Assembly (NCBI GenBank): GCA_001724265.1 | Contig: MEDY01000004.1 | Coordinates: 186,001-250,000, forward strand | Source: Rhizaria sp. SCN 62-66 | Taxonomy: Eukaryota | Direction of reading: 5' to 3' | Length of the DNA: 64,000 nt | Shown: positions 41,231 through 64,000 of the stretch, in pieces | How positions within the stretch are numbered: the stretch's first letter is position 1 | Layout: each line of letters begins with the position of its first letter | Notes under the pieces: model-generated | The model's input: the letters and a program-made list of their open reading frames with translations, nothing else | Told to the model about the DNA's origin: nothing | Databases searched by the model: none | Made by a program: the position numbers and the translations under genes

Positions 41231-44200
41231 TTACTCGCTGCCGCAGCAGTCACTGGGCTGCTCCCAGCCGCCCGCGCGCGCCATCTCCGCCTCCGCCAGC
41301 AGCAGCGCACGCTTGCGTTCCCAGTAGACCACAGCACGTGTACACGCGTACTCGAGGTACCCAAACCGTCCGGTGCCGTCATCGCTTGACGTGCCTTCGT
41401 CATCAGCGTTGTCACTGCTGTTGTTGTTGTTTGCACCGAAGAGCGTGACGCCCCAGAAGACCCACTGCAGGTGCCCTGCAAGCTGCGCCCACGCTGCCTC
41501 GTACAGGAGCCGCGCAGGTGCCAGGGAGCGAACTGCACGCGCACGCTCGCGCCGAAGACGCCGCTTCCAAGGCCGCACGCCCGCGGCGGCCGCGCCAGAG
41601 TCCGCGGTGGCAACTGCCGAGGGGGACACTGCGCCAATCGTGTCGTCATCGTCCTTCTCGACGCTAGCGTCAGCGTCGGTGTCGGCGCCAGCGCTTTCGT
41701 CTCCGCTGCACTAAGACCCTGTACCGCCACTGCTACCGTGAGCGGCGCGATCGCGCTTGTTGCCGTACACCGCAGCCGCTGTGGCGGCGGCGCCAGTGGC
41801 CATGCCGTGCGCGTAGCACTGCGCGAAGGCGTGCTCCTGAGCGGTGAAGCAGTCGGGCGACAGTTGGGCCAGCAGCGTGCGCCATGACTGCAGACTGCGC
41901 GGCGCGCTGGGATGGAGCGGGCTCCACTCTGCGTTGGCGTCGCAGTCGTCCGTAGAGTCGGACAAGGTGTCGGCACGGGACTGCGGGATGACCTCAAGCA
42001 TCTGCGTCGCGGCGGCAAAGTCGAGGTAGAACCCCGGATACGCGCCGGCATAGGCCATCGTGCGCTCACCGATAGAGTTGGTGATGTCGAAGGCGCGATA
42101 GTTGGGACCGGAGTACTCGAAGTCGATCACTGTGTACGCTGCGGACTCTGCAGCCGCAGCCCTTACAAGACTAGCAATGGTCGTGTGTTCACTGTCGTTC
42201 ACAGTCTTAGCATTCTTGCCGCTGAGTTTACTCTTGCATTGCTTGTGCTTCTCATCGTCGACCATCACGTTGCCGCTATGTAGGTCGTTGTGGCAAAAGA
42301 CCGTGGGCACCCTGAGCGCGTGCAGACGCCGCAGCACCCACGCGGCCTCGCGCCGCAGCGCGGGCAGGTCGATAAACCGCAGTAGCGCTGCCGCGGCCGC
42401 GCGCGAGGGTACTGGGCTGCGCGGGCCCGCCGCGGCCGCCGAGTCGCTGTCGCGGACCGCTGCCGGCGGCATCGGGAGGAAATGCGTCCGCAAGTACGGC
42501 GCCACGGCAGGCGGTAGCGGCGCGGGCAGGAACGCCAGCGACGGGTCCGCGGCGATGTCGGCCGCGGAGCGCGTGGGCGGGGGCGCAAGGCGCATGCGGA
42601 CTTGCTGTCGTGCTTGCTGCTGCTGTTTATGCTCGGGTTGCGGAATGATTTCGTCGGACTTAGCGGGAGAGTAAGTGTACGTGTATATAGACGTGAGTGT
42701 AACAGTCAGCGCCGGCGATGCAGTAAGTACATGCGGCGGAGCAGTCGCGAGCGCAGCGGCGGCAGCGGAGGCCGCAAGCGCGTACCACGACGATAGGTAC
42801 TGCGCAAGTGATGTCGCGGGCGCGCCGGCGGGCCGTGGGACGGCGGCGGTAGACCGGTGGGGGTCGATGAGCTGCGGCGCGGAGTGCAGCAGGCGGGGGA
42901 CTACCTCTAGCGGCTACGCAAAAATAACATTGTTGAATAAGAAACATGAGAATAAGTCATACAGTGATCATATGCACCATACATGAGTGGATGAAGATAT
43001 TTGTAATGCTGACGTACAAGTGCGTGCATGCGGCCCATCGAGTAAGCCACCACGGCGATGACCGCTGGGACGTGCCACTCAGGAGCACGCAGTGTGCGGC
43101 CGCGGATGAACGACACAATACGACCGTTCAACGGTACACTATTGGGACTCGAGCTTGTACCCGGACTCGAGTTTGGAGTCACGTTCACGGTCACGATGGC
43201 AGACGCAGCAGGTTTGCCCGATGCGCGGCTGTCGGCAGAGAGAGTGAGCGATGTGGCTGGTTTATCTGCAGCGTCTACTTGCGCAGCACCGTTGAACGGG
43301 ACGAGCTTGGTTTCACCAGAGTTACCACTGCTGCTGCTGCTGCTACTGCTGCTGCTAACTGTGACAATTGAGTTCGCATTAACATTGCTAAAGCTAAGGT
43401 TCGCGTTGCTAACTGCGTTCGCGTGTGCGTTGTCGCTGCTCTTGCCGCTGACGCTGTCAGTGTTGCTGCTCAAGTCCGCAGCCTCGTCCGCGAACTCGTG
43501 GAATACAGTCTCGCCGAGCCCGAAGCGCGAGGCGAGTGCGACCATGGCCATCTCATGCCCGCGGTCAGTGAAGTCCGCCTGCCCGAACAGTCGCAGCACG
43601 CACTCGCCGGGCATCGCCCCTGCTGCGGACGCCGCCGCGGACTGCGCGGTCGCGGCTGAGGTCTGGGAGTCGCTTTGAGTCTCCATCTGGGTCAGATCGC
43701 ACTGGGAGGAGGTCACTGTGGGCTCAGTGGGGAAAGCGGCTGCAGGCAGAGTGAGCTTAAACATGCGGTTGGTTAGTCCGCCTGTGATGACGGAGACCGC
43801 GATGTCTTGCCAGACAGCCGCGGGGATCGACTGCGCGGGGCGGGGCGGGGCGGGGTAGAGCGACAAAGAGAAACGTAAAAAAAAGACAATATAGACAAGT
43901 TAAAACGTTACTGTTATGCATTCAATAGAAAGTACATAACAGAGAGATGACTGTTTCAATGCGGTTCGCGGTGACAAGCTCACGTACGTCCCAGCCCGTG
44001 ACCTTAGTGCGCGCGAGCTCGATCAGACGGATGAGATGCGCGTCCGAGACCAGCGCCGCCACGTCAGGCCCGCGCACGCGCTCCAGGTCCACCGCAAACT
44101 CCGGTGGCGCAAGGCGCGTGCCAGAACCGGGCGGGGACTGCTGCGAGCGCGAGACAGTGTTGTCGAAGTTGTAGGTGTCGGAGTGCACTGAGTGGGCGAG

Positions 44201-44527
44201 CGAGGCCATGCTGGCGCCGCCGGGGAGCGGGGACATCGGCTCCTCAGTCGTGGCGGAGTCGCTGCCATCAGCAGGAAAAGTGCCAGAGTAGAACAGTTCT
44301 TCCTCAGCCTCTGTTGTGGCGTCAGCGTTGTCGTTGTCATCATTCTCGTTGGTGCTGTCATTGGCTGCGAGCGACGGGTCGGCGACGGGCGAGCTAGCGT
44401 TGGGCGCGTTGCGACGGGAAAAGCGCCGGGACGGAAACAGAATTCGCCGGCTAGTTGCCCAGCCAGTGGCAATTGCGCACGTAATAGCGATGCGCCAGCT
44501 GGAGGACTTGCTCCATTGGACCGACAT
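41231..44527 (-). CDS. Choline/ethanolamine kinase; exons 44527-43988, 43830-43018, 42913-41231; internal TAG at 41713-41711
   Basis: ITGGLTNRMF, VLRLFG, MGRMHAL, Brenner motif FCHNDLHSGNVM and IDFEYSGPNYRAFDITN precede the TAG. The C-terminal block HLQWVFWG...FGYLEYACTRAVVY follows it. Two phase-0 GTACGT...AG introns; ends in TAA. Confidence 0.88.
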
Positions 44528-45472
44528 GTTGCGTGTCAAGCGCGTGGAGAGTGGAAGAAACGGGGAGAAGGCTGACAGAATAACAAGACGACGTGGGGTG
44601 ATAACAAAACGATCAGTTCGTAGAATTAAAGACTCAAATAAGATATACACGTGTAAATGTGGCAGTCATATCCTATAGCTACTGACGGTCATATGACTCC
44701 AGTATAGTTGAGCGAACAAAGTTCCATCGAACGCACTCCGTGCACTCGAGCAGCACACATTATTTACTCGTGTATGCACAGCATCACAAGTGATAGCATG
44801 TGCGCATGTTTTTATAACGTTTATACACTTTAAAGTGCGTTACTAAAAATTATGCATGCATTTTTATTCGGTATATGGCTTGGTATCTGTTGCTTTGCTA
44901 GGCTCACCACGAACACTTCGCAGTGCATGACAAAGCCCTCCATGCTTGCGCTAAGATACTTAAGTCAGATAGATGTGAAATAATATCTTGAAATATGAAA
45001 TAGCACACCAAAAGGCAGTCAATCGTGCATCGAAACGCCCTGCGAAACGTTGCCATATACTGTCATATACATGGTGCAGATGTTCATACCAGTTCTAAAC
45101 AAAAATAAGCATTGTATTCAGAGTTGAGATTCATTCACGATGCCTTCATGCTCTCAAACTCGGCCCCGCAGCAGTATAATCACACATACAGCATTGCAGT
45201 CGACCTCGCTTGCCTGCACCCGAAACTTGATGACGTTCAGGCATTGCGAAACGCAACCGTCAAGACATGAACAAGGAATCTAAAACTAAGTAAACTAAAC
45301 ACCACACAGAACGGATGTGTGCAAAATACACATTAATAGTAATGTTCTCATAAAACCTGGACGTGTGAGATCAACAAAACGCAAGTTATCGACCTCTGTC
45401 ACGACTTGTTTGTCGTGACTGCAAGTGCACACACGTCCGAAAGCAAAGCAAGCAATCATGCTGACATCACGC

Positions 45473-48262
45473 TCACGCTTTCTTCTTCGCAGGCGTGTTG
45501 TCACCCTTGCCCTTGCCCCGAGGCTTCCCAGCGCCAGCTTTACCAGCCGAAGCCGCGACCGAGCTCGCCTTATTCTCCGCGTCAGCATCAGCCTCAGCCT
45601 CAGCGTCGTTGTCGTTGTCGCAGTCATCGTCGCCATCATCCTGTGCTACGGAAGCGGCGGCGCCGAGGCCGCAGATCCAGCCGACGCCGCAGTCACCGGG
45701 CTGGTCGTCGTCGTCATCCTCGCCCTCAACCTCGACGAGCGTGCGCGAGTTGGCGGGCAGACAGAGCAGCTGGAAGTAGACGAGGAAGACGAAAGCGAGC
45801 CCGAAGGGCACGAAGCCGCCCACGGCGAACATGAGCTCCTTGAGGAAGGGGTACCGCTCCGACGCGGGCGCGAAGGCGTCGTAGGCGTGCACAAGCAGGA
45901 ACATGACCTGCATGGCCGTGGCCACAGACACCGAGAGGTCTTCGCGAACGCTCTCTCCACTCACGACTCCAGGTGCAGGCGCAGCAGCAGCGGGAGCGGC
46001 GGACTTGCTACCCGTCTGCGAGGACTCTGAAGCAGACTGCGACTGTGAGGATGCAAAAGAAGATGGGGGGGAGAAAAGGCGCGCACAGAGGGCGTTGGTA
46101 CCGGTGGAAAAGAGCGTGGGGACGCGGTAGAGTGAGACGCTGTGGATGGTCGACCCCATGAGCCAGGCGATGTGCAGGAACACGTATGGGATCACGAGCC
46201 CGTCGCGGCGCAGCAGCGGGAACATCGAGAAGAGCGCGGCCGAGCCGAGCGTGACGACGAGCCGCGGGTGGTAGAGCAGCAGCAGCGTCAGTGCCGTGGT
46301 GGGGAAGATGATGCTCTTTTCGTGGACTTGAAATGAGAAAAGGAAGAAGGCGAAGGCGATGGCCGACAGCGAGTAGACGAAGCGACGGCTTGTGGGCCGC
46401 AGCACCAGGTCCACGCAGCTGGGCAGCGCGGCCGCCAGCGTGAGCAGCAGCGAGAAGAAGGCCAAGCGTTCGGGCGCGAAACGCTCCTTCCAGCGGAAGA
46501 CGACGGCCGATACGCACCAGAAGTTGGCGACCTTGTCCTCGAAGATGTTGCGGCCGACGGGGAACATGCGGCGCAGTACGTGGCCCAGCCCCGCCGCGGC
46601 CTCGCTCAGCGAGCGCGCAAGCCGCGGCGCGGGCGCCGGAGACAGCAGGTCCGCCTCGGTGCGCGCGGCCGAAAGCGGCAGCTCGGGCGAGTCGGCCGTG
46701 GGAGTCAACAGCGCGAAGGGGGCCAGGATCACGGCCAGCGCCAGGATCACGGTGGCGCCGATTGCGGCAACGCGCTTGACGGCGGCAATGCTCAGGCGCG
46801 GACCGGGCACGCGCGCGTCAACAATCGAACTGGCCGCGACAACAGCAGCAGCAGCAGCAGCAGCATCAGGAGGAGCCACTGCGGGAGCAGGAACGGAGTT
46901 CTTGTTGCTGTTGCTGCTCTTGATCTTAGCGGAGTCAGCGTTCTCTTGCGCGGCGGCCGCAGGTGCAGCTGTCGGGGTGGGCGCGGGCACAGGCGCGGGT
47001 GCGATGCGGAGAGCTGCGCCGAGCATGACTGCGAAGAAGGGCAGTGCGTAGTAGAGCGCGATGTGCTTGAACATGAAGGAGCCGACGAAGCAGAGCGCGG
47101 CCGTCTTGTAGTTGCGGTTGAGCACAAACGACACAGCCCACAGCGCAAGTCCCACGGCAATGCCGTTGTACTGGAAGTGGCCGTGGTCGATGATGAGCAG
47201 CGCCGGCTGCGTCAGCAACGCTGTGGCGACGAGCGCGCGCGACGAGGCGGGGTAGCGCTTGTAGAGGGCCCAGCAGGCGTAGAAGGCGGCGGGGATGTAG
47301 ACCACCAGGTCGCCGCAGATAACCGACCAGCGCATGAACATCTTGCTGGGCGCCGACTCGTACCCGCGCGAGAGGAACTGCGCCGTCAGCGAGGGCACCA
47401 CGAGCGCGTCGGCGGCCGCGCCCCACAGGTACGCCCAGTAGGCCGACAGCGGCGGGTAGTCGAGCCCCCAGTAGAGCAGGTCGTTCTGGCGCGTGTTGCG
47501 GTACCAGTCCGAGACTGGCAGCGAGCGTGTGACCTCCATCCAGTGGCGCTGCGCCTCGTAGTCGCCGCGCATGGCGCCGCCGCCCGAGGCGAGCGAGCCG
47601 GAGAAGGAGTGTTGGCCGACCGAGATGCGGATGAACAGCCCGGCAAACACCAGCACGCCCGCGCCTGTCCAGAACAACGCGTGGTTGCGGGCCAGGCGCG
47701 CGAGCAGGCGGCGCAGGCGCTCCTCAGCCGGGGACGCCACGGGCCGCGGCGGCAGCGCCGAGTCGGCGCCAGGCGGGAGCTCCGTGTCGAGTCCGCCGAG
47801 AGCGCCGCGGGAGAGCGTGAGCGACGACGAAGACCGCAGCGACGGATCCGCGTCGTCATCGCTAGGCGTATTCGCGGGCGCCGCAACAGCGGCGCGCGGG
47901 GGCCCCGCGAGCACGGCCGCCAGCGCAGCGGGGTCGGCCGTGTAGGCGCGCGGGATCGGGGTGCGCAGGAAGAGCCACTCGAACTTCCACGCGTCGCGCT
48001 TGGCGCGGGGCGCACGGTAGCAGTAGATGGGGCTCGGTGGAGGGTCGCGAAAGAAGTAGCGCAGGAAGCCCTCGGCGCCGGAGTCCATGATGTTGCCGCC
48101 GACGTAGCGCAGCGTGCCGAGTTTGTAGCGCAGGCGGTCCAAGTCAACGCGCCGCCGCCGCTGTCGCGTGTCGTCGGTGGGAACGTCCGTCGCAGTCGCA
48201 GTGGCCGTCGCCGCGTCGGGCGAGTACACCGCGCTCAGCTCGTCGCTGGCCAGGAAGCTCAT
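45473..48262 (-). CDS. ALG6: Dolichyl-P-Glc:Man9GlcNAc2-PP-Dol alpha-1,3-glucosyltransferase ALG6
   Basis: GDYEAQRHWMEVT, YWGLDYPPLSAY, IDHGHFQYN, FEDKVANFWC and FFLFSFQVHEKSI; multiple TM segments; C-terminal KKKA dilysine ER signal; ends in TGA. Confidence 0.92.
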   Translation of the reverse strand: MSFLASDELSAVYSPDAATATATATDVPTDDTRQRRRRVDLDRLRYKLGTLRYVGGNIMDSGAEGFLRYFFRDPPPSPIYCYRAPRAKRDAWKFEWLFLRTPIPRAYTADPAALAAVLAGPPRAAVAAPANTPSDDDADPSLRSSSSLTLSRGALGGLDTELPPGADSALPPRPVASPAEERLRRLLARLARNHALFWTGAGVLVFAGLFIRISVGQHSFSGSLASGGGAMRGDYEAQRHWMEVTRSLPVSDWYRNTRQNDLLYWGLDYPPLSAYWAYLWGAAADALVVPSLTAQFLSRGYESAPSKMFMRWSVICGDLVVYIPAAFYACWALYKRYPASSRALVATALLTQPALLIIDHGHFQYNGIAVGLALWAVSFVLNRNYKTAALCFVGSFMFKHIALYYALPFFAVMLGAALRIAPAPVPAPTPTAAPAAAAQENADSAKIKSSNSNKNSVPAPAVAPPDAAAAAAAVVAASSIVDARVPGPRLSIAAVKRVAAIGATVILALAVILAPFALLTPTADSPELPLSAARTEADLLSPAPAPRLARSLSEAAAGLGHVLRRMFPVGRNIFEDKVANFWCVSAVVFRWKERFAPERLAFFSLLLTLAAALPSCVDLVLRPTSRRFVYSLSAIAFAFFLFSFQVHEKSIIFPTTALTLLLLYHPRLVVTLGSAALFSMFPLLRRDGLVIPYVFLHIAWLMGSTIHSVSLYRVPTLFSTGTNALCARLFSPPSSFASSQSQSASESSQTGSKSAAPAAAAPAPGVVSGESVREDLSVSVATAMQVMFLLVHAYDAFAPASERYPFLKELMFAVGGFVPFGLAFVFLVYFQLLCLPANSRTLVEVEGEDDDDDQPGDCGVGWICGLGAAASVAQDDGDDDCDNDNDAEAEADADAENKASSVAASAGKAGAGKPRGKGKGDNTPAKKKA

Positions 48263-48716
48263 TGACGGCGAAAATGGTCTCACAGCGCGAGCGCAGTACG
48301 ATTACGAGTGGGTTCGAATATGATGGTGGCGAAGAAAGCTACCGTCGAATCAAGAGGCGTACACACATGAATAAATCGCGTGTGAGATTACCGTTGAAAT
48401 AATAAACAGGACACTCAAAACCAAATAAGATAATCGACGGAAAAATGTTAAACATGCTGCTACACGGCGAGTATGCTTCTCTAAAGTTGGCCTTCTCGCC
48501 ACGGCTGAGACGCTCGGCTGCCCCAGAAGTTTTTGTGGCTGCCAGCTAAGCTCACAAGTCCGATGACTAAAGCAATGCATCTGCCCAGTCAGACTCCGTC
48601 AACCAGGGACAGCGCAACGTGTTTGGAATTACCAAACTTGTTTTGTATATGATCCTATTATTGTTTTACTTCCGACCTCTAACTATGCCTTCCCTGTCGC
48701 TTTTCTCCCCCAGCAG

Positions 48717-49679
48717 ATGCTCTCCCGAACACTGTCCCGGGCCGTCTTCGGCCCCGCGCGCGCAGCGCCGCTCTTGGTCCGCGCCTCGCGTCTGGCTCCC
48801 ATCACAGGAATGTTCACCCCTTGTGTTGCGTCCACGCCGCGCTTCCGCTTCAGCTCCGCCAAGAATGACGACGCGGCGCAGCCCAGCGGCATGCAGCACG
48901 CCCCGGTCTACAACAGCAGCAGCCACAACCTGACTGCCCGCGAGCTCGAGCTGGAGGAGCTGAAGCAGCGTCTGCGCGCGCTGGGTCCCTCACCGCTGGC
49001 AAAGCAGCTGGGCCGCGACGCCGACGTGCCGGCCGACTACCGCGACCCGCGCTCTGTGTCTGGCAACCCCGCGCTCGCCACCGTGCCCGTCCGCGCCATC
49101 GACGATAGCGACGCGGCTGCGACCGCCGAGTCGACCGCGACTGCTGCGGCGGCGACGGGTGCGGAGCCCAAGCGCCGGCTGGTGCGCGACGAGGAGGAGA
49201 CCGCCGTGTTTCACCACTCGCCCGCGCCCATCGCCGTCGGCAGCGCGCACACGGTGGCTCCCAGTGACACAACCGCAGTCAGCGACGGCCCCGGCGGGGT
49301 GGCGATCGGCCAGGTGTCGCCGCGCATCGTGATCGGCATGACGTGCGGCGTGTGCAACACGCGCCTGGTCAAGACCATGTCTAAGCTGTCGTACACCAAG
49401 GGTGTGGTGCTGATCCGCTGTGACGGGTGCAGCAACACGCACCTGGTGGCCGACAACCTGGGTTGGTTCGACGACCACAGCGTTAACATCGAAGACATCA
49501 TGCGCGAGCAGGGCCAGGAAGTCACGCGCGCCTCGGCTGACGACGGCATCGACGCGCTGACCCCCGAGGTTGTGGACAGGATTGCCCGCCTCGCCAAGGA
49601 GGCCCGCGAGAGCGACCTGGCCGCGCCACTCACCGGCGTCGCGGGACTCAAGGCCAATGAGAGCAAGGATGCCAAGTGA
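48717..49679 (+). CDS. DNLZ: Mitochondrial DNL-type zinc-finger Hsp70 escort protein (Zim17/Hep1/DNLZ)
   Basis: TCGVCNTR...MSKLSYTKGVVLIRCDGCSNTHLVADNLGWF; Arg/Ser-rich, acid-free N-terminal presequence; ends in TGA. Confidence 0.9.
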   Translation: MLSRTLSRAVFGPARAAPLLVRASRLAPITGMFTPCVASTPRFRFSSAKNDDAAQPSGMQHAPVYNSSSHNLTARELELEELKQRLRALGPSPLAKQLGRDADVPADYRDPRSVSGNPALATVPVRAIDDSDAAATAESTATAAAATGAEPKRRLVRDEEETAVFHHSPAPIAVGSAHTVAPSDTTAVSDGPGGVAIGQVSPRIVIGMTCGVCNTRLVKTMSKLSYTKGVVLIRCDGCSNTHLVADNLGWFDDHSVNIEDIMREQGQEVTRASADDGIDALTPEVVDRIARLAKEARESDLAAPLTGVAGLKANESKDAK

Positions 49680-49972
49680 GCCCGCTATTTATCTAGGACT
49701 TGGGACATAATGGGATCGTGTTGTCGTGTGTGTTTGAAGAAGAGCATATGTTTGGTCGTAATTTAAGCGTGATCTCTTTTGCCGTTCTCGGGCCAACCAA
49801 TACATAATGCATTGCCTAAACAAAATGAGGATTTCTTGTGGTTACATCAACACATGTGTGTGTATTTGAAAGTAAGACAAACGAAAACACTAGTTATTGT
49901 ACAGAACAGAGACAAACCGTATCTACAAATCGAACCTCACTATTTGAAGTGCGGTTACCAAGTCCGCACACT

Positions 49973-51325
49973 TCAGCGGCGCGAGGGCTGCTCCATGGCG
50001 CGCTGGACGAGGATCTTGAACTCGCTCTTAGTGTACGAGTCCGAAGACAGCGAGTGGAAGCTGTCCATAGCGTAGCCAAGCCCCTCGAGCGCGCCGCGCG
50101 CCTGCTCCTGCGTGAGCACGCCCTTGTGCGCGGCGTCGACCATGCCGAAGTAGGCGTCGATATCCTCGTCGGTGAAGAGCGAGAGCGCCGACAGCGCACC
50201 CTGGGCCTCCTGCAGTCGCTGCAGCTCGCGCACAATGAACGCGCGCGCGTCAGCGGGCTTGTGGTACACGAGGCTGGCGCAGATGCGCTCCATGGTGGTC
50301 AGAACGCCGTGCTTCTCGAGGTACGCGGCGGCCGACTTGACCGCGTCGTCGCGCTCCTCGGTCATGACGGCGAAGCGCGTGAGCGTCACGCCCGCCTGCT
50401 CCAGCGAGACCTTGACGCGCGCCACGGCCGCTGTCGCGGGCAGCAGGTCCGCGCCGGCGCCGCCCACGGCCGCGGAGGCCGACGAGGACGTGGAGAGCGC
50501 GGCCGTGACAGAGGCGCCGTCGGCCGCGGCGGCGGTGCCAGGCAGCAGGTGCAGCGCACACACGGCGTCGAGGATCACGTGCGCGTTGTACCCGAGCTTC
50601 TGCGCCGCGATGGCCGTGCGCGCAAGGGCGCCCTCAAAGGCGAGCCCGACGAAGTAGACGTCGCTGACGTTGGCGGCCGAGAGCACGCGCGCGAGCTGGG
50701 TCTGGCGCAGTGTGATGTCGTCACTGAAGAGGTCGGGCGAGTCCTCGTCGGGGTTGGTGCCCTTGCGGATCACGACGTCGCCGGAGTAGCGCTGCAACGC
50801 GGGCGCAAAGGCGGCGCCGTGCGAGTCCTGCAGGCAGTGGTCGGGCCACACGGTCTGCTCCATCAGCCGCGTCGGGTCCGCCTTGGAGGGCAGCGTGACC
50901 GTTGTGAAGGGCAACACGCGCTGCGTCTCCAGGTGGTGTGACAGCAGCGAGACGTGCGACGGCGGGTGCCAGTCCTGCGACAGCACGACCACGTCAAAGC
51001 GGAACGCGTTGCGGATCTTGTTGATGACAGAGACGGCCTGGTCAGACTTGGGGTAGGGCACGGTGCCACCCGTCATGAAGTCGTTCTGCACGTCCACGAT
51101 GATGAGCGCAGACTTGCGGCCGCGAGGAGGCTCAAGACTGTTAGTGAAGAGGCACAAATAATAACAGTCATATGAACTGTGTAAGCCATGGTTAGGAACG
51201 CGCATATCAAGTCATGCCGCGGTCGTGAGGTGCGAATAAGAGAATGTTGGTAGTATGAAGGGGGCTGGGACGTACGTGCTCTGCTTGGCCTCGTAGACGA
51301 GCTGAGCATCAAGATCAGTTGCCAT
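49973..51325 (-). CDS. Nicotinamidase (PncA/Pnc1)-like domain fused to an EFCAB10-like docking + EF-hand domain; exons 51325-51276, 51137-49973
   Basis: ALIIVDVQNDF, SQDWHPPSH, WPDHC and IRKG, followed by YLEKHGV...SLVYHKPADARAFIVREL...DIDAYFGMVDAAHKGVLTQEQARGALEGLG. Intron is GTACGT...CTAACAG; ends in TGA. Confidence 0.85.
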
Positions 51326-51740
51326 GGTAGGGCTGTGTTGGTAGAAACCTCGCACTAGAAAGTCGCTTCAATGCGAACAAGTGACAGGTAGAGACTGTGC
51401 GCAAGGGCGAAAGAGTATCAAAATGTCTATGACTCGACTCAGAGAGTGTGTGAAGACCTGTGCCGAGGGAGACAAAGAAAAGCAATTGTAGGGTGTTAAT
51501 TAAAAATAACAAATAGTGGTACATGTTGAAACCCAAGAAAAGTTGCAATAAAGCAACCAGACGGATGCTTGGTGGTCTGGGACCGTCATTTTAGAATTGA
51601 ACCGTTACACGCAGCGTGTGGTCGCCGACTGCCGACTCGTTTGCTCACGGTCACTTCTCGGCGGGCCGATTTCGGGCCCGAGCGGGGGGCCGAAAAAGTT
51701 CGGCAATGCATTTCATGAAATAGCTTATCGGCACCTACTG

Positions 51741-51758
51741 TGACGTGATTTGACGTAA
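51741..51758 (+). promoter_or_regulatory. Tandem CRE/UPRE-like TGACGT elements in the divergent promoter upstream of the bZIP gene
   Basis: TGACGTGA at 51741 and TGACGTAA at 51751, 10 bp apart, about 150 bp upstream of ATG 51902. Confidence 0.35.
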
Positions 51759-51901
51759 TTGATACCAACTTATGCGATGTAATGTACTTATATAATTATT
51801 ATATTTTTGCCACTCTTCTTAGCGATAGTATATCACCAACTAACCACGCTTCACGTTATCTGCTGCCGTCATCTCTCCCACTTCCCCAGCCTGATCCCAG
51901 C

Positions 51902-54339
51902 ATGTCCCTGTCGTTTGACGCGGTGCATGCGCACAACTTCGACCCGGCGATGTATACCAACACGAAAAACTCCATCGCAGCTGCTGCGGCGCGCGGTGAG
52001 CATGCTCCTGACGGAGTTATGAGTTTGGACGACGTTCTGGGTGACTCGGGCGCGCTCGACGCCCACGTCGCCCCTGTTCTCGCCACAGCGCGCCTGCCCG
52101 CCTCCGGCGCGTCTGCAAGCGTGGTTAACACGTCCCTGGCTGCCAAGAACCAACCCTACGACGCCCCCGAAGGCGGATTCCTGAATTTGTCGTCGGGAAT
52201 GTCGCTGGGTGCTTCTGTCAGCGATGACGACCACTCCGCTCAGATCCGTTCAAACATGGCAGTCGCGCCGACCGTCGCCCTGGCCTCTGACCCTGGTCCT
52301 CTGGTCGCGCTGCCGAACATTGTGCCGCCGATCTCGCCCAAGCGCGCTTCTCTGGCCCACGAGTCTGTCCCGTCCTCACCCTTCTCCTCCCACGCTGGCT
52401 CCGACAACGACGACCACGTTCCTGTCCAGCAACAGGCCCGGCAGCCACTGGTCGAGGACCCTTCGCCCACCCGTGGCGGCCGCGCGCTGCCCGTGCCCAT
52501 TCTCACCGCACAGACCGAGCCCACCGAGGACCCCCTTGCGCAGTTCACGAACTACACAGGCACCGCGGCCGGCAGCAACGCCGGGGGCTCCTTCTTCCCG
52601 CTCGGCGGCTACGGCAACTTCCTTCTCGGCAGCGGCGGCGGCGGCGGCGGCAACGGCGACGACGACGACGACGGCAACGACGAGCGCCGCCGCCGCCTCG
52701 CCGCAGCTTTCGGCCACCACGGCAACGGCGGCTACCGCTACGACAACGACGACGACGATGACAACGACCGCAGCAGCAGCAGCAGCAGCAGCGGCAGCAG
52801 CAGCAGCAGCAGCAGCAGTAGCAGCAGCAGCAGCAGCGGCAGCAGCGGCGGCAATAAGGACGTCGGCGAGGACGCGGTGGGCGTGAGCGGGCGCGAGGCC
52901 ATCATCGCCGCGACCGGCCTGGCTTCTACCGTGGACACGATGAACGGCGCGCAGATGGCGCCGCTGATGCAGATGCATCACCGCGGTGGTGACATGGACG
53001 CGCTGGGCCCGCTCGGCTACGCGCACCACGGCCACCAACACAGCATGAGTCCCGCTCACGGTCACTCCCACAGTCACCACGGGCTTACTCATGGCCACGG
53101 GCACATGATGTCCCCTGCGCAGTCCTCGTCCTCGTCCTCGTCGTCCTCCGCGGCGTCCTCGTCCTCCTCGTCGTCCGGCGCCGCGGCGTCGCACCCACAC
53201 GTGCATGCACACCTCCGCGCCTCCATCGCCGCCCACACACAGTCCCTCGCCCACGGCCACGGCCACAGCCACGGCCTCTCTGGCCACCACGGCGCCCACG
53301 GTCACGGCGTGGTGTCCCTGGGCCCGGACCAGTCGTGCGCGTCCAGCGCCGGCCTCGGCGTGTCCGGGCTGCCTCCGCACTACGGCCCCGTCCCGGCTTC
53401 GGCCGCGCTCGGCGCGCTCGACTCGGCCGGCACCGGGAGCGCGGCGGGCTACTACCACGCGGCCGCGGCCACGGCCTCGGCGTCGACGGTCTACGTCGGC
53501 CACGTCGCCGCGCACCCGCACGCTCACGGCCATGCAAACCCCCACCCCCACGGCCACGGCCACGGCCACCACGGGCACAACCACCTGATCCAGCCCACGG
53601 TGTCCGCGGCCGACGCGGGCGCGCTGGGCGTCGCCAGCGCGCTCGCCGCGCAGCAGCAGCCCGCCGCCAGCGCCGGCACCCCCATGGCGACGGGAACCGG
53701 CCGGCCGGCACGCGGCAAGCGCTCCGCCGCCGCCGCCTCAGCCGCTGCTGGGACCGCGGGCTCCCGCCGCACGTCCTCGGCCTCCGCCTCCGGGGTCGCC
53801 GACCACCACGGTGGCGTCAACCACAACGGCAACGGCGGCATGTCCGCGGCGGCGCTGCACATGCCGCTGCTACCGCAACCGTCGTCGGTGGAGCTGTACA
53901 ACCGGCTGGGCCTCGCCTCGGCCTCGCTGCTCGCCGGCGCGGGCTCGACCGGCTCCGGTTCCGGCAGCGAGAGCGCGCGCTCCCGCGGCGCGACGCTAGC
54001 GCTGTCCACCGCGCGCGCCAGCGTGCTTGCTAACGCGGAGGAGGCGGTGGACGACGACGAGGAGATGATCGAGTTCCTCGAGTCGCGCGCGGGCCAGAGA
54101 CTGACCAAGAAGGACCGCAATAAGCTCTCGGCGATGAAGTACCGCAAGAAGCGCAAGATGTTCCTCTCGGGACTTGAGGACAAGGTCGGCGACCTGGAGA
54201 CGCTGATCCACATGCAGCAGCAGGACATCGCCAAGCTGGCCCAGGACAACCTGCGCCTGCAGCAGCAGCTTGTCACGGCGGGGCTCATCCCCGTCACCGT
54301 GCTTCCCGCCAAGCCCGGCCGCAAGCCCAAGGCCGTGAC

Positions 54340-54370
<31 letters not shown>

Positions 54371-55915
54371 GCGGCTGCCGTTGCGGGGCCCGGCGCGGCC
54401 CAGCTGGGCGCCCCGGGCACTCTCGGCGCCGGCTACGCGCAGATGGCCGTGGCCGCCTCGGCCGCCGCCAACGGGGCCGCCGGCGGTGCCGCCATGCAAC
54501 AGGCCAAGCGCGCGCGCGCCGCGTCCTCCACCGGCGCCGCCGCGGCCCGCCGCACCGCTTCCACGGCCACCGGCGTGTCTGCCGCTCTGCTCGCTAATGC
54601 CAGCAACGCCAGCGCCATCGCGATTGAGGACAACAGCGAGCACCAGCTGGCACCCCCCGCGGCCTCGGCCGGCGGCTCGCTGCTCTTCGTGCTCTTCTCC
54701 TGCCTGCTCGTCTTCGCGCCCGCGACGCTCGGCGCGCTCCACGACGCCGGTGCCCTCGCGACCCACGGCAGCGCCGCGCTCGCGGTTGACGCGGCGGCCT
54801 TCGCGCCTGCCGCCGTCGCGGGCGAGGACCGCCACGCGCCCGCTGCCTCGGCGGCCGCGCGCACGCTGCTCTCCGTCGCCGACACCGCCGTTGACAGCGC
54901 TGCTTCTGCCGACGCTGACTGGCTGGCCAAGGCGTCGGCCGCGCCGCTCTCGCTGCCCACTGTGACCGTGAGCGCCCCAGCGTCCCCGGCGGCCGCGTGG
55001 CTGTCCGCGGCCGCCGCGGTCGTCGCGCCCTCGTCCCGCGGCTCGGCCGGCGCGTTGCTGCTGGCGCTGTGGCAGTCACTGGTGCCCGTCGCGCTGCTGC
55101 TGCTCGCGCAGCGCGTCGGCGTCGTCGCGCGCGTCAAGCTGGCACTCGGCAGCAAGCCCGCTCTCACTGACGTCAAGGCTGCTTCCATCGCCCAGTGCGA
55201 TGCCGCGGAAGTTGAGGCCGAGGCTGCTGCTGCTGCTGCTGACACTGTCGCTGACGACGACGATGCCGACGCTGACACCACTGGCGCTGGCTCTGTCGAC
55301 GCCGCGGACGTCCTCGTTGCCGAGGACGAGGACTGCGACGACGATTGCGGGTCTGACCGCGTAGCGGCCTCGGATGAGGACTTTGGCGACGGCGAGCACA
55401 GCGACGACGCAGATGCCTACGCCGACTCGGTCTCCGACGCCGACGCAGACACCAAGGCCGAGGCCGAGGCTAAGACTGCTGCCATCGCCACCAACAAGAG
55501 CGTCGTGAGCGCTGACAAGAAGGATACTGCCGCTGCCGACTCTGCTGTCCCCGAGGCCGCCATTGCTACCGCGCCTGTGACCGCGACCGCGACTGTGGCC
55601 GTTGAATCCGCAGAGCCTGTGGTGCCGGAGCTGGACGAGATCGCCGCCATGAAGACGGCCGCGCTCATCACCCAGCGCGTCATCCCGCGCCGCGTCCGCG
55701 TCCCCGGCGCCGCCGCCTCCTCCGCGTCCGGCGCCGGCGCTGGCAACGGCGCGGCGACGGCGGCCGACGAGTCGGGCGCCCTCTCCGCGGCCGCGCTGGA
55801 CGACACCGAGGATGACCTCAACCCGCCCGGGTTCGACGCGGAGGCCTTCGCGGCGCCGCGCGTCATCGGCGACGACGCGGACCCCGACGGCGGCCAGCCC
55901 GGCAAGGCCTGTTAA
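51902..55915 (+). CDS. Membrane-tethered bZIP transcription factor (ATF6/CREB3/bZIP28-like architecture)
   Basis: Basic region KKDRNKLSAMKYRKKRK plus a leucine heptad (about 54100-54270), TM-like SLLFVLFSCLLVFAP (about 54675-54722), and RTLL at 54860-54871; ends in TAA. Confidence 0.8.
52771..52845 (+). repeat. Imperfect (AGC)n coding microsatellite giving poly-Ser in the bZIP; one of many trinucleotide tracts in the CDSs
   Basis: Directly visible cagcagcagc run encoding SSSSSSSGSSSS... Confidence 0.85.
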
Positions 55916-57027
55916 GCGCCTAACCAGCAAACATGTACAGCATGTCTGCGGTTTGCCATTGTGTGTTCATGGACGGGGCTATTACTGTTGGGACGATGTT
56001 GGATGCATGACGTGTTGCTCAGAACCCAAACACGCTGTATACGCACACTAGCTATCTCTCTAATATTCGCTCTTGCTATAACCATTGCACTTTCTGCCAT
56101 CGCTGCCCATTGGTTGCGTTGGTGGCCATCAAACAAGGTTGTTTGAATGAAACTCGTTTATGAAATCTGTTTTGTTTGAATCCACTCTCGTTTTTTTTTG
56201 TTGAATGTTTCTTTAATCACAACAACATAGCCATTTACATTTTAGCCTTTATTTCTCGGGTGGATCTTCAGACGTGTGTTGTTTCACTTATGATAACGAC
56301 AACTTTGCGTCGCTGCACGAGTCCTTTTGAGTGCAATTAATTGTAGCTCGTTACATCGCACAACACACTCTGAATTAAACACTGGCGTGTATTATGGCGC
56401 TCATGGCATTCGTGACGTTTTTTAACCATCGATTCAGAACACACCAACATGTTTCTGTCGCACGCTACGGGTACACGGCACTCTCTAATAATGCTCATGG
56501 CGTTTGTTCAAGTATATTTTCTGTATTCCTAATCTCAATGGCAAACGTCTGCACCGCGTTTTTGTGTGTGTCATGTCCCATTGCCCCCGTTTATGATTGG
56601 TTTCTTGAAGCGTCTCTTAGGCACTCCACACTTTCCTGGCTTGCATGCATTCTCATGCAGTACTTCTGCATATAAGTTTATTTTACTTGACGATACACTA
56701 CTTTACGATTCATCTTCTTTAAATTTCCGTGCATTTGCGTTTATATCATTTTAATCAATTGTTTCTAGTTGCTACGCACTCCATTTATAGTGGTGCTGTA
56801 TTAGTTTAATCATCACAGAATTGTCGATCTTGTCTCACCACGCCAGCCATCCACTCTCTCGAGTCGCTCAACCATTGATAACAACATAGAAAATACTCTA
56901 GAGAGTGTAAGCTATGCTCAAAGAGAATCAAAGTCAAAGCAGCGAAACAGCGGGGACTGAACCCACGTGGTCACATGTAAGCTTAGTGTCATTTCCTCAG
57001 CGGAAAAAGGCGCTGCTGCTGCTGCAT

Positions 57028-58377
57028 TTACGCGTTCTTGGCCTTCTTGTCAGTGTGCGTGACCTCTTCGGCGGACTCCTTGGCGGCGCGCGCGGTCTGC
57101 TCGGCGGGAGCGCAGTACTTGCCAGCGAACTCTGCCGGGACCTCGCCGCCGGAGAGCACGTCTTGGAGGAACTTGGGGAGCACAAACGCGGCAGAGTGGA
57201 GCTCGGAGGTGTAGTACTTGAGGCCGAAGCCCTCGGGCACGGTGCGGACGGGGACCTTGCAGGACACGGTCTTGACACTGGCGTCGGCGGAGGCCTTGCC
57301 GCAGATGATGAAACCGATCTGGCCGAGCGGGTAGGTGGGGATCTGAGTGGTGGCGTACTCAACCGTCTCGAACACGTTCATGGCGCGGACCTCAGCGATG
57401 AGGCGCGCGATGAGCTGCACGTCCTTCCACATCGACTCGCCTTGCGTGGCGACGCGGCCGCCGGGGGCGAGCGCGGCGGCGAGGTCGGCGTAGAAGGGGC
57501 GCTCGAAGAGCGCAGCGGCGGGGCCCACGGGGTCGGAGGTGTCGGCGACGATGACATCGAACTTGCCCTTGTTCTCCTCGGCCTTGATGTAGACCGAAGC
57601 GTCGCCGCAGATGAGCTTCACCTTGGGGTTGTCCCACGCAGAGGCAATGTGGGGGAAGTACTTCTTGCCGCAGTCGATGACCATCTGGTCGATCTCGCAG
57701 ATGTGGACCTCCTCGACGCTGTCGTGGCGCAGGACCTCGCGGATGACGCCGCCGTCGCCGCCGCCGATGATGAGCACCTTCTTGGGGTTAGCGTGGGAGA
57801 AGAGAGGGATGTGCGCGATAGGCTCCTGGTACGCGATCTCATCGAAGTCGGTGATCTGGACGACGCCGTCGAGGACAAGGACGTTGCCGAAGGTCTTGGA
57901 CTTGAACACGACGACGTGCTGTTTGAGTGTGCGGGGTTGATGTTGATGAAGGACATAAAAGAGAGGTTAAAGAGTAAGGGACACTGCTGCTGATTGACAG
58001 GTTGTCAAGCTATTATTCCACTGAAAGAAGGCAATATGCAGCCGAGAGATCAAAGTATGCCGGATTCAGAGTCAACCGCAAGTGTGGAGTGGGAATGTGC
58101 GTACCTGGTAATCGGACTTGGCGTCGTGGAGGACCTCCTCAACCTCGAGAGCAAGGGCAGTGCCTACACATAGTTGGTACAGAGAGATAAGAAGTGACAC
58201 AAGTGAGACTCACGGCAGAGTGACAAGAGGCGTGGCATTGTGTCGACAGGCATCCCAAGTGATGCGAGAAGTGCCAGCGGCGAAGGTGCATCTTGGCGTA
58301 TAGAGAAAGTGGATTAACGTACCAGGCCACTGCTCGTTGACCTCAACAAACCATCCCTTCATCTTGTCGAAAGACAT
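57028..58377 (-). CDS. SRM: Spermidine synthase; exons 58377-58323, 58163-58105, 57918-57028
   Basis: GWFVEVNEQWPG|TALALEVEEVLHDAKSDYQ|HVVVFKSKTFGNVLVLDGVVQ, KVLIIGGGDGG, CEID, FDVIVADTSDPVGPA and IPTYPLGQIGF. Introns are GTACGT..TAG and GTACGC..CAG; ends in TAA. Confidence 0.95.
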
Positions 58378-59175
58378 TGCGAAAACGAACGCTGCAAGGC
58401 AGGAAACAGAGAGAAACACAGAAAGCGATGAGCAAGCGCACGACTAAGATGACGAGCGAACAAACAGGCCTCACACGCTCAAACAACGAGTTGATAGAGG
58501 AATAAAATATTTTGACGGTGGAAATCAACAAATAAAACGACCATTCAGAAGTCTTTGAGTTGGATTATGAAGCGATAAAGCAAGGCTCATCAAATTGCGC
58601 TGCATCTTCAATCAAGCTGATCCGATCGTCACTGGCGGTAGCGGGCTGGGCCAGCAAGCGATTTTTTGCGAACTCTCGAGCGTGCACCATCTCCACACAC
58701 ACTTTCTCGTTTTAATCAACGTTCAAAGCACATTAGGCATCCGACCGCTGCAACTGCAGCGCTACTATGGTATACTACACATTTAGACCTACGATATCCC
58801 GTGTTTATACTACTTCAAGCGATCACTTGACTGTGAATGTCTCAGTTGGAAGACACACCGGAAGCGTGCCATCGAATCTACGTGACTTTGACACTTTATG
58901 TACTGTAGCTCACTGCTGTTTCACTTCGTGCATATGTACTCGATCTTTTCACATTACGCGCATTTTAAAATACTATGTTAGCCTTGCTATAACTCAGAAA
59001 AACTCAATTTCTGGCTGAAGAAGCCTCTATCAAACCAACACAGGCTCATCCTTGTTGCTGCCCGCTTCAGCTAAACCCGACACAGCGGCCCACAGGCTGT
59101 CACCAGCTTTGCGAGCAGTTCTAACCCGCGGTACCCGCTTTACCGCCTCCGGCGCCGTCCGCCCATCCCAACTGG

Positions 59176-62100
59176 ATGTCGGTCGACAGCAAGTCCAGCG
59201 AGATGCTGGGCCTCTTCCTGGCGGACCTGCGCTCGCGCTCGCTCGAGACGCGTCTCGTCGTCGCTAAGGACCTGCGCCGCTACGTCGAAGAAGAGGCACG
59301 CACCAAGTCCGCCGAGAGTTTCACGCACTTCATGAACGATGTGAACCGCGTGGTGATGGACCTGGTCAACTCGCCCGACCTGAGCGAGAAGCTCGCCGGT
59401 GTCATGGTGCTTGACGAGCTCGTAGAGGTGCCCTACGAAGAGAACGAGACTAAGGTCATCCGCTTCGCAAACTATCTCCGCATGATTCTCTACGGCGACA
59501 GCATTAACACGCAATTGCTACTCGCTGCGGCGCGCGCATTTGGACACCTCGCGCGCGCTTCCGGTACTCTGGCGTCTGACGTTGTGCTGACAGAGGTGCG
59601 CCGCGCGATTGAGGCCCTGCGCATGGGCAAGGCTGACAAGTGGTTCACTGCGCTGCTTGTCACTCGCGAGCTGGCCGAGAACGCGCCCACGCTCTTTGCT
59701 CCGTACCTTGAGCCGTGCTTGGACGCGCTCTGGGGCCCGCTGCGCGACGCGCGCGAAGGCGTGCGCGGGCCCGCCGTCGACGTACTGCGCCTCACCATCG
59801 TGTTATCGTACAAGCGACCTGTCTCGCACCGCGTGCAGCTGTACACGCGCGTGTTCCACGAGATTCAGAACAGCCTCAAGACGTCCACGGTCGAGGCCGT
59901 GCACGGTGCGCTGGCGTCGCTGCACGTGCTGCTCGTCACCACCAACGACTTCATGACCCCGCGCTTCGACGAGGTTTGCCAGATGGTGTTTCGCTACCGC
60001 GACCACCGCGACAGGCTGGTCCGCGAAGCCGTTATTGAGCTGCTGCCCAAGGTTGCCTCGCTGTCACCGCCGGCCTTCACGAACCCCGTCACGGCGTACG
60101 CGCACCTGGCGCTCTCGCACCTCATCGCGGTCATCGGCAAAGGCGCGCCCGAGACGACACTTGCGGCGGCCTTCACCGCGCTTGGCGAGCTGGCACTGAT
60201 CGTGCAGTCGACGGTGCTGACCAAGCTCGACGTCATCGCTACGCTGCTCAAGGACGCACTCACAGCGCGCGCGCGCAGGCCCGCGATCGTGGCGCGCGTG
60301 CTCGACTGCGTGTCGATGCTTGCTCGCGCGCTGGGCCCCGCGCTGCTGCCGTACGTCGCCGACCTCATCGACCTCATGTTCGCGGACGGGCTCTCCGCGC
60401 CACTCGTCGCCGCGCTGACGAACCTCTCGCTGCACGTGCCGACCGTGCTCCCGCACGCGCAGCACCGCCTGCTCACCGCCATCGCACTCATTATCTCGCG
60501 CCGCTCGCACGGCGGCGTGCGCGGGCCCACAGCGCTGGGGCTCGGCGCCGCCATCGGTTTCGGCGGCCCCGGCGCCGGCGCCACGGACTCGTTGCTGGGT
60601 CTGGGAGACTTCGGCCGTCCCCCGGGCTCCGCGTCGCTGGCTCCGCAGTCGCCTGTCTCCGAGACCCCCGGCTCACCCACCGCGTCCGCGTCGTCGCTGC
60701 TCAGCGGTCTTACGGCGCGGCTCCGTGGCCAAACTACGACCGCCGGCCCTGCCGAGGGCGCGCGCTCGCTCTTCTCCACGCTCCACGCGGGTGGCGCTGA
60801 CCCTGTCGCCGCCGCGGCGGCTGCGGCGGCCGCAGCTGCGGCGGGCGGCTCTGGCGCGCAAACTGCCGGACAGGGCGCGGGCGGTGCCAGTGGCAGCTCT
60901 GGCGCTTCGGGCGCGGGTGTGGCCGGCGCGGGGCTGAGCGCGGCGGATAACGAGAGCCGTCTGATTTCGCTGACGATTCTGTCACTGCAGACGCTGGGCT
61001 CGTTCGACTTCGACGCGCACAACCTACTGCCGTTCGTGTACGAGGACGTCGTCGGCTATCTCAGCCACGATGTACCCATGGTGCGCAAGTGCGCCGCCGT
61101 GTGCTGCGTCAACATCTTGCTCCGCCCGCCCAAGTCTGTGTCGCAGTCGCGGCTCGACCTGCTGCAGCGCCAGCAGGCACAGATGTCTGCTGAGATCCAC
61201 GCCCTCGAGGCGCGGCTGCAGCAGCAACAACAGCAGCAGCAACAACTCGACAGTATCATCAATGCTGGCCCCGCGACTGGAGCCCCGACTTCAACTCAGA
61301 ACGACGGCGCTCAGGCGCGGCTGTTGCACGTGCGACCCAGTGCCCTGCAAGCCACTCTCACGGCCTCCGTGTCGAGCTCCAGCTCCAGTTCCAGCACCGC
61401 TGCTGCATCCGGTCCGCTTTCGACCGCAATGCCGCGCCAGCGTCGCGCGGGCATCCTGGGCTCTGCCTCGGCCACGGGCTCCGCGCTGAGCTCCATCGCA
61501 GGCCCGGCCGGTGCGACTCTCGGCGACGGCGCACAGTCTCCTCTTTCCGGACTGCCCTCGGTCGACTCGATTGCGGCGACCGCTGCGGCCGGCAGTATGA
61601 CGCTGCGCCCGTTCGCGCTGCCCTCGGCGCTGGGCTCGCCGCTCAGTCCCAACGGCAGCAGCAGCGGCGGAAACAGCATCGCACAGAGCCTCGACGGTCT
61701 GCCGACTGCGCGCGGGACCGGGCCGGCGCTGCGCGCCCCTCGCTCGATGCAGCGACTGACACACTCGCGCCTCGCCGCCGCTGCCGCTGCCCTCACCGCT
61801 TCAAGCTCCTCCGCGGCCAATGGCGCGACTGGCGGTAGCAGCAACGCATCAGCTGCCGAGGCCGCGGCCGCCGCGAGCGCTGCCTCCACTGGCGCACTTG
61901 AGCCCGTTGTCGCGTCCGCGCCCGTGTCGCTGCTCGCGTCGTCCACCTCGGGCGCCGTGGTCTACCCCAAGGGTTGGCTCGCAATGATGGAGGCCGTCCT
62001 ATAGCGCCTCGTCGCGACCGCGGTGGCGGACCCCGATCCCGCGATCCGCCTCGTTATCCTGCGGCTCTTCGCGCGCGACTTTGATCCTTACCTGCTGCAG

Positions 62101-64000
62101 CCGCGGTACTTGCACGCGCTGTTCGCGCTTGTGCGTGATGCCTCGACCGCGATTCGCCAGGCCGCTCTCGGCATCGTGTGTCGCATTGCGCGCCACTCGC
62201 CGGCGTTCATCCTGCCCTTCCTGCAGCAGCTGCTGCTGGAGCTGCTCACCACGGTGCAGAGCGCCACGGAGCCGCGCGCGCGTGAAGAGGCCGCGGGGCT
62301 GCTGGCATACATGGCGTCGTCTAACCTGGCGCCGATTCGGCCGTTCATCCCGCCCGTGCTGCGCGTGCTCACGCCTCTTACACCCGACGTGACCTCGGCC
62401 GCGGTCACCACGGCGCTGCTGACTAGCATCGGCGCAATGTCGCAGCTAGGTGGCCGCGACGCGTTTCCCCATGTTGCCCCGCTTGTGCCGCTCGTCATCC
62501 GCATTTTAATTCACAAGGAGGCCGCTGGAGCACTCTCTGTCGCTGCGGCTGCCGCAGCCTCGTCTTCCACGATGGGAGCTGGCGCTGCGCCCACCGTTCA
62601 GTCCGGTATGGCTGCACGCATGGGTGGCGCCGCGCGCGGGGCCGGTGGCTTTGGCGTCGGCGTCGGTAGCCGCGACGTCACGGCTGCCTCGCTCGGCGGC
62701 TGGGGCGGCATGGCGGCCGGCGCAGGTGGCTCTGGCCCCATGGTATCGGCGCAGGCGCTCGAGTCCTCGTGCACGATTGCTGCTGCGGCAGCTGCGGCTG
62801 CTGCCTCCGCTGCGGCCGGCTACGCGGGCTCTGCTCCCGGCGCTGCGGCGTCGGCTGCTCAGCAACAGGCTGCCGCGTCTGCGGCTGAGCTCACGATGCG
62901 CGTGCTGTCTGCGCCGTCACCGCTGCTGCAGGCTGTTCGCCACGACACTGCGCTGCGCACTCTGGCGCAGATCCTTGGTTCTACAGGCTGGGTCGTGTCT
63001 CCCTATTTTCACTTCCCGTACCTGCTCCCACTGCTGCTGATGTTGATCCAGACCACGACAAGTCTAAGTGTGCGTTCTGAGGCCGTCACTGTGCTCGCAA
63101 TCGCGGGTCCGCTGGACCCGCACACGGTGCGCACGCTGCAGTCCGCGGCCGCGTCGGCGCGGCTCTACCGCAACGTGCTACGCCAGGCGGACACGGGCGC
63201 TGCGGCGCTGGACCTGGAGGCGCTCGAGGACGAGGTGAATACGACGCTGCACATCGCTGAGCGCACTGCGGGTCAGCGCGAGTCCTCGCTGCGCTGGCAC
63301 GCTAATAAGGCGGCTGCAGTCGCCGCGGCTGCCGTCGCGAATGCAACCGCTGCTGCCGCAGCCGCAGCCGCGAACGCGCAGAACCTGGCTGCTGAGGAGC
63401 ACAAGCAGGCCGAGATATCGCATCATCACATGGGTACAACTGCTGCTGTCGCCGCCGTCGCGGCCGCCGCAGTTGCCGCCGTCCGCGCCGCAGGCGTCAC
63501 GGCAGTGCACGACGGCCACGCGGCGCGCGTGTACGAGCACACGCTGCGGCTGCGGCAGGCGCTGGCTGTTGTCCTCGCGCCCGGCGCACCGCTGCCCGCG
63601 CGCGGCGACGTCGTGCAGCGCGGGCCGAGCTTTATGGCGACATCGCACGCCGCTGCGCACGCTCGCTGGGTGCACGCCGTGACGGACGAGTCGGGCCACC
63701 AGCCCCCGCTGCGGTACCGCCACTACCAGCACCAGGTCGGCGCGTCCGCTGCCGGGGCCGGTCACGGTAGCCACGGCCACGTCGAGGACGGCCCTGCGGC
63801 CGCTGGCCCGACTGAGGCGTACGGCGCTATGGCGATGAACCCCGCCTCGCCGGTGCCGCAGCAGCCGTGGGAGAACGAGTACCAGGCGCGGCAGTTGGCT
63901 GCAGAGCAGTGGGCCGGCTCGCAGGGTTATGACGCCACTGCGTCGCCGTTGCCCCCGTCTGCGGCCACGCTGAACTCGACCGCACTGTCAAGTGAGAGCA
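59176..64000 (+). CDS. TOR: Target of rapamycin kinase, N-terminal HEAT-repeat part; internal TAG at 62002-62004; runs off the window
   Basis: TKVIRFANYLR, RELAENAPTLF and LQTLGSFDF precede the TAG. After it come RLVATAVADPDPAIRLVIL...FDPYLLQ...LFALV...PAFILPFLQQLLLELL...AREEAAGLL and ALRTLAQILGSTGWVVSPYFHFPYLL...AGPLDP, all matching TOR. Confidence 0.92.

Follow-up and report, generated by a model that had tools for sequence, protein, structure and literature searches.

In-frame TAG codons in TOR and four other genes of a GC-rich eukaryotic contig suggest that UAG is probably read as sense

A stretch of 64,000 nucleotides from the assembly of Rhizaria sp. SCN 62-66 (GCA_001724265.1; contig MEDY01000004.1, positions 186,001 to 250,000 of the forward strand), referred to as the window below, contains close to its right-hand end the first part of a TOR gene, the reading frame of which is crossed by a TAG codon. 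The window is eukaryotic nuclear DNA. Its coding regions have a guanine-plus-cytosine (GC) content of 60-77% (about 70%) and its spacers one of 33-50%. In addition to TOR, genes have been recognised for NAMPT, uS11/RPS14, an HBS1-like GTPase, choline/ethanolamine kinase, an ALG6/ALG8 glycosyltransferase, a DNL zinc-finger protein, an isochorismatase-family protein, a bZIP protein and spermidine synthase, as well as for several very long low-complexity proteins. In total, 15 gene models with 17,351 codons include five in-frame TAGs, at 15534 (+), 32183 (-), 39744 (+), 41711 (-) and 62002 (+), while in-frame TAA, in-frame TGA and frameshifts are each found zero times in them.

TOR is an essential gene, needed in vegetative growth. 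Its first 1608 codons lie at 59176-63999 on the plus strand, so that the expected FAT, FRB, kinase and FATC domains would fall beyond the window edge. The in-frame TAG at 62002-62004 (+) is codon 943, where two frames of the same phase meet, one with 959 open codons (59125-62004) and the other with 665 (62005-63999, running past the window edge). The DNA at 61990-62010 reads GAG GCC GTC CTA TAG CGC CTC GTC. The gene was identified by phmmer against all PDB sequences, in which human mTOR (5h64_A) is matched with an E value of 1.2e-87 and yeast TOR2 (5fvm_A, 6emk_A) also matches the N-terminal HEAT region (E 7e-79). The mTOR alignment consists of four significant stretches within residues 6-1317 of the query. 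The domain crossing the TAG extends to query residue 1107, and a separate domain covers 1254-1317. Over the TAG the alignment is ungapped ('ammeavlXrlvatavadpdpairlvil' versus 'qvvadvlSkllvvgitdpdpdirycvl' of mTOR), the codon being paired with the Ser of mTOR in VADVLSKLLVVGITDPDPDIR, and at least 375 further residues are homologous downstream. Pfam mTOR_dom (PF11865) is matched at residues 1273-1373 (E 1.4e-12; 48.4 bits, cut-off 27.6), 330 residues past the TAG. This TOR shares the N-terminal HEAT region and mTOR_dom with mTOR and TOR2, whereas it differs from them in its long low-complexity inserts rich in Ala, Ser and Gln (e.g. residues 445-590, 655-930 and 1120-1250) and in the single in-frame TAG, its catalytic C-terminal half being located beyond the window. 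The GC content at third codon positions (GC3) of the gene is 0.80.

An earlier reading of this DNA, made from its letters and here called the sequence-only reading, had placed the TAG within a conserved block of the TOR HEAT repeats, aligned without a gap, and had noticed no sign of splicing around it. Both claims are supported. The phmmer alignment puts the TAG opposite the Ser of VADVLSKLLVVGITDPDPDIRYCVL, which is the block that the sequence-only reading had named, and besides the ungapped alignment there is neither an AT-rich GT..AG segment nor a dip in GC flanking 62002. None of the joints reported for the RNA contigs brackets the TOR TAG; in every one of them the sides are 20-27 letters long and fall in low-complexity repeats. 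An intron removing the TAG was rejected as unlikely in view of the gapless alignment, the lack of an AT-rich segment and the restriction of the reported joints to repeats.

The codon might in principle be a sequencing or assembly error, for which nothing has been found in favour and to which we give next to no weight. The assembly of run X3, which belongs to a different study, covers 61847-62858 with 0 differences, and the eight pieces of this run listed over 44260-64000 likewise show 0 differences; moreover, four more TAGs follow the same pattern. Contigs of the polyA metatranscriptome X5 match TOR, differing at one position at most, at 60086-60420, 60765-61119 and 62687-63018, and thus lie on both sides of the TAG; no difference is listed for 62002-62004. 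Gaps in the X5 cover of TOR, and runs in which the stretch has a small share, carry no weight here as evidence. The stretch recurs in bioreactor, wastewater and activated-sludge runs, which points to a metagenome as its source.

The other four in-frame TAGs are in unconserved or low-complexity sequence. The TAG at 15534-15536 (+) is codon 1538 of a low-complexity protein of 2253 residues, encoded at 10923-17684 (+) by a gene that ends with TAA. The TAG at 32183-32185 (-) is codon 1084 of a protein of 3261 residues, encoded at 25649-35434 (-) and also terminated by TAA, and is located in an acidic run, EDEDD-TAG-FE. The TAG at 39744-39746 (+) is within a gene for a protein of about 1630 residues with weak F-box similarity (E 0.09), which lies at 36048-40931 (+) and ends with TGA. 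The last, at 41711-41713 (-), falls in a low-complexity insert of choline/ethanolamine kinase (41231-43764, minus strand; PF01633, E 2e-17), a gene of two exons ending with TAA. In a listing of long frames, four pairs of long open reading frames (ORFs) adjoin in phase with a TAG between the two members of each pair.

Codon usage on either side of such stops was scored as log-odds, with homology-supported genes as the training set. The score was applied to in-frame stops in all six frames that are flanked on either side by 200 or more open codons, a sample of 19 stops (9 TAG and 10 TGA). Both flanks score positive in only three of the 19, namely 15534 (+0.29 upstream, +0.38 downstream), 32183 (+0.21 and +0.16) and 62002, all of which are TAG; for 62002 the upstream flank is within the training set and the downstream flank alone (+0.32) is independent. 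The score at 39744 is negative because the GC3 of its host gene is atypically low (0.54). This gene at 36048-40931 is peculiar in itself, in that its GC3 contrasts with 0.75-0.93 in its neighbours, yet some 1630 codons are open. Three more TAGs are found in frame at 35976-36047, directly upstream of it, and they might be in a leader.

If the TAGs were true premature stops in nonsense alleles or decaying genes, other copies would have to supply the functions. There is room for a second TOR copy beyond the 64-kb window, and nonsense mutations in this sequence would mostly be TAG (~67%). Nevertheless, five of 15 genes are hit while there is no frameshift and no interruption by TAA or TGA, TOR retains both homology and a coding signature past its TAG, and the sequence is identical in the assembly from another study. 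Such decay would also leave the absence of TAG from the gene ends, described below, unexplained, and we regard it as very unlikely.

Thirteen gene ends are recognisable in the window, and they comprise nine TAA, four TGA and no TAG. TAA is thus the commonest terminator despite a coding GC3 of ~0.8; the same preference for UAA is reported in other lineages with a reassigned UAG. Base composition changes sharply at these ends, the GC content of the 150 nt that follow being 0.33-0.49 in 12 of 12 measured cases. Past the in-frame TAGs it is 0.59-0.79 in four of four, including 0.79 after 15534 and 0.63 after 32183; TAG 41711 and the gene end of RPS14 are left out of this comparison. Because GC stays high past the TAGs, there is no intergenic signature at them. 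With four more genes carrying an in-frame TAG and no gene ending with it, the TAG pattern concerns the organism as a whole and is not peculiar to TOR.

As a control, a 21-kb piece (L002) of a 131-kb metagenome contig from a distant relative was used, which has a GC content of 0.52 and encodes an HBS1 protein 45% identical to that of the window. There, TAG ends four of seven genes and is never internal to coding sequence. Among these genes are an endoplasmic-reticulum-type Hsp70 ending KHEEL-TAG (11508-13943 of that piece, minus strand) and an LST8-like WD40 protein ending ALNDS-TAG (20145-21383, minus strand), and therefore the organism from which it derives keeps the standard meaning of TAG. 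When the ends from the window and from this piece are pooled, the chance that all four TAG ends among the 20 fall in the latter is 0.007.

UAG might instead be ambiguous, serving as a terminator at some gene ends while being read through efficiently inside genes by context-dependent or near-cognate decoding, after the manner of Condylostoma and Blastocrithidia or of programmed readthrough. The very low usage of TAG (5 of 17,351 codons) and the small sample of 13 gene ends would agree with this, and ambiguous codes are mentioned in PMC5304391. However, TAG terminates none of the 13 genes, and no 3' context is common to the five TAGs: the base immediately following them is G, T, T, T and C, and the sequences that follow (GCG, TTT, TGT and CGC, and a Cys codon in choline kinase) share no motif of the kind expected of a readthrough context. 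In addition, readthrough of low efficiency in the middle of TOR would presumably leave little full-length kinase. Ambiguous decoding therefore appears quite unlikely.

Collectively, the observations are best accounted for by a nuclear code that reads only UAG as sense and keeps UAA and UGA as stops, a reading to which we would assign a probability of about 0.75. It is based on genes that are intact and free of frameshifts, on the conservation of the essential TOR past its TAG, on the absence of TAG terminators, on the lack of a compositional break and on identity across studies. In this organism, UAG would no longer be a termination signal. The TAG of TOR would be an ordinary, albeit very rare, sense codon, so that full-length TOR would be made, and TAG codons would arise now and then and be tolerated. 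By analogy with other reassignments, a tRNA with the anticodon CUA would be expected, which may differ by one anticodon change from tRNA-Gln(CUG) or tRNA-Glu(CUC), and eRF1 would be expected to have lost or weakened its recognition of UAG, in line with the portion of PMC5304391 that deals with eRF1. The very low usage (five of 17,351 codons) suggests that the reassignment is recent or weakly used.

Several points weigh against a sense meaning of UAG. Only five TAGs have been found, and only one of them is at a conserved column. Given this codon usage, TAG would be the outcome of ~66-68% of random nonsense mutations, and five TAGs out of five therefore have a P of only ~0.13-0.15. That all interruptions are TAG was accordingly dropped as a decisive statistic (expected TAG share ~0.67; P ~0.13). 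TAG amounts to 0.03% of codons, whereas even the least used standard sense codon, TTA, is five times as frequent (26 occurrences), and the usage of TAG is below that given for exLh and Iotanema in the excerpted text of PMC5304391. Thirteen gene ends are a small sample, in which the chance of meeting no TAG is ~0.01-0.02 if TAG had a share of 25-30%. Among the X5 pieces listed, none spans 62002, and the polyA library may contain DNA. Neither ARAGORN nor Rfam detects a single tRNA gene in the 64-kb window. The gene for eRF1 is outside the window, and the only translation GTPase within it is the HBS1-like one. Finally, the closest relative found, a contig of 2.1 kb (L001) with an HBS1 ~70-71% identical, is uninformative: it carries one gene with a TGA end and gives no test of the meaning of TAG, since its only TAG lies in the leader.

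The conserved column in TOR also bears on the identity of the inserted residue. The 150 best TOR representatives and one earlier match were aligned, and 143 sequences were kept that cover the column and carry the D and R of the motif DPxxxIR. Opposite the TAG they have E in 45, Q in 21, S in 15, D in 9, H, K and R in 8 each, T in 7, N in 6, G in 5, A in 4, L and V in 3 each, Y in 1 and W in none. Polar residues account for 136 of the 143 if the five G and four A are included in the count, and hydrophobic or aromatic ones for seven. In a single-sequence AlphaFold model of 196 residues (mean predicted local-distance difference test score, 77), the TAG position falls within a predicted helix, residues 8-27, of the HEAT repeats. 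The sequence-only reading had expected a helical position favouring a polar residue over Leu or Trp and had suggested aligning TOR orthologues at this column; with E, Q and S as the leading residues, L in three sequences and W in none, the alignment agrees with that expectation, and so does the model as far as the helix is predicted.

As judged from this one conserved column, the residue encoded by TAG is most likely polar, Glu or Gln, while Leu, Trp and Tyr are disfavoured. The Leu meaning that UAG has in the rhizarian exLh was considered and is unlikely, given 3 of 143 at the single TOR column. The acidic run around the TAG at 32183 provides a slight hint toward Glu. If the residue is Gln, TAG would make up 5 of 579 Gln codons (<1%), and if it is Glu, 5 of 674 Glu codons.

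The composition of the same column is relevant to editing of the mRNA, by which the codon might be removed through A-to-I conversion (UAG to UGG) or U-to-C conversion (to CAG). Every interruption is TAG, and none of the five is spanned by an RNA contig among those listed, as editing would allow. Some filamentous fungi edit UAG to UGG by A-to-I conversion in transcripts of their sexual stage. TOR is needed in vegetative growth, and the best named matches of HBS1 are green algae and Acanthamoeba (~40-44%) rather than fungi. Trp, which UGG would specify, occurs in 0 of 143 sequences at the TOR column, and editing would also leave the absence of TAG terminators unexplained. Editing is thus highly improbable.

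A more specific form of the reassignment, in which a previously unrecognised lineage recurrent in wastewater and bioreactors has reassigned UAG alone, is at an early or low-usage stage and may use it for Glu, is put forward tentatively and is in our judgement somewhat unlikely. UAG for Glu together with UAA and UGA as stops is not among the codes in the excerpted texts of PMC5304391 and PMC11687900.

Few nuclear codes change UAG while leaving UAA unaltered, and those described in the same excerpts are of exLh, Iotanema and some phyllopharyngean ciliates (PMC5304391, PMC11687900). According to the part of PMC5304391 concerned, exLh and Iotanema spirale are the first UAG-only reassignments described. 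In exLh, a rhizarian of the Sainouroidea, UAG means Leu and occurs in frame 384 times across 71 genes, for the most part where Leu is conserved, and its terminators are UAA in 56 cases, UGA in 15 and UAG in none (PMC5304391). The organism studied here would resemble exLh in changing only UAG, and it resembles it in being known from environmental or contaminant sequence and in its stops (TAA 9, TGA 4), but it has five TAGs in 15 genes and one conserved column, at which Leu is found in only three of 143 sequences. In Iotanema spirale (Fornicata), UAG means Gln and accounts for ~8% of Gln codons, while UAA and UGA terminate (PMC5304391). The present organism would likewise reassign only UAG, keep UAA as a stop and use UAG as a minor codon, and the TOR column is compatible with a polar residue; on the other hand, it is GC-rich, TAG is far rarer in it (5 against 574 CAG plus CAA), and there is no evidence that the two are related. 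Among phyllopharyngean ciliates, UAG means Leu or Gln, UAA is the preferred stop and suppressor tRNAs have been found, as stated in the excerpted text of PMC11687900. Here too UAG would be changed apart from UAA, which is the preferred stop, and the ciliate cases come partly from metagenome-derived genomes. In contrast, nothing ciliate-like is seen in the window, with its coding GC of ~70%, long genes and GT..AG introns. Literature searches returned no wastewater or GC-rich eukaryote with a sense UAG, although supplementary files might list more taxa.

If the sense reading is true, this would be a further, apparently independent UAG-only case and would strengthen the view that UAG and UAA can be recognised separately. 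GC-rich genomes, too, would then be able to lose UAG as a stop. The rarity of TAG would offer a view of early reassignment, a natural snapshot of stop-codon capture; the evidence base is 64 kb and five codons, and possibly an early stage of codon capture is being seen. In practical terms, standard gene callers split or truncate proteins of this organism, TOR included, and metagenome catalogues mis-annotate them as a consequence.

Close relatives of the organism are scarce among the sequences searched. The HBS1 protein has matches 71% and 56% identical among metagenome proteins, while its best named matches, in Closterium, chlorophytes and Acanthamoeba, are 40-44% identical. With a TOR segment of 196 residues, a search of 1.84 billion representatives gave 741 matches, of which the best 150 are all at most 39% identical. 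A homologous-protein search with the TOR segment for closer relatives gave one weak match, in Cyanidiococcus (E 1.5e-4), and a second one gave none. When metagenomes were scanned with residues 944-1608 of TOR, no locus was returned, a genome-contig scan with residues 1-942 returned none either, and a protein atlas search with the TOR N-terminus retrieved only generic HEAT clusters.

The HBS1-like translational GTPase is encoded at 23336-24994 (-), and its best PDB match is Hbs1l (5lzw, E 2.3e-88), ahead of eRF3. It bears on ribosome rescue and is neither eRF1 nor eRF3. Two spliceosomal introns are located, an AT-rich GT..AG intron of choline kinase at 42880-42966 (-) and one preceding the final exon of RPS14 (uS11) at 10130-10280 (+), which reads GTACGT...CTACAG. 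Introns are few, most of the other genes being uninterrupted, including 4.8 kb of TOR. The four very long proteins (1644-3261 residues), encoded at 2-5119 (-), 10923-17684 (+), 18099-23033 (+) and 25649-35434 (-), consist largely of low-complexity sequence rich in Ala, Ser, Gln, Asp and Gly-His and contain no Pfam domain except for a weak F-box-like match. Spermidine synthase is encoded at 57028-57966 (-) with PF01564 at E 4e-61; the ORF opposite it, at 56911-57993 (+), is longer but spurious. Two genes encode domains of the type found in nicotinamide adenine dinucleotide (NAD) salvage, NAMPT at 6556-8133 (+) and an isochorismatase-family (nicotinamidase-like) protein at 49973-51205 (-), the latter bearing a C-terminal EFCAB10/RIIa-like domain in an unusual fusion.

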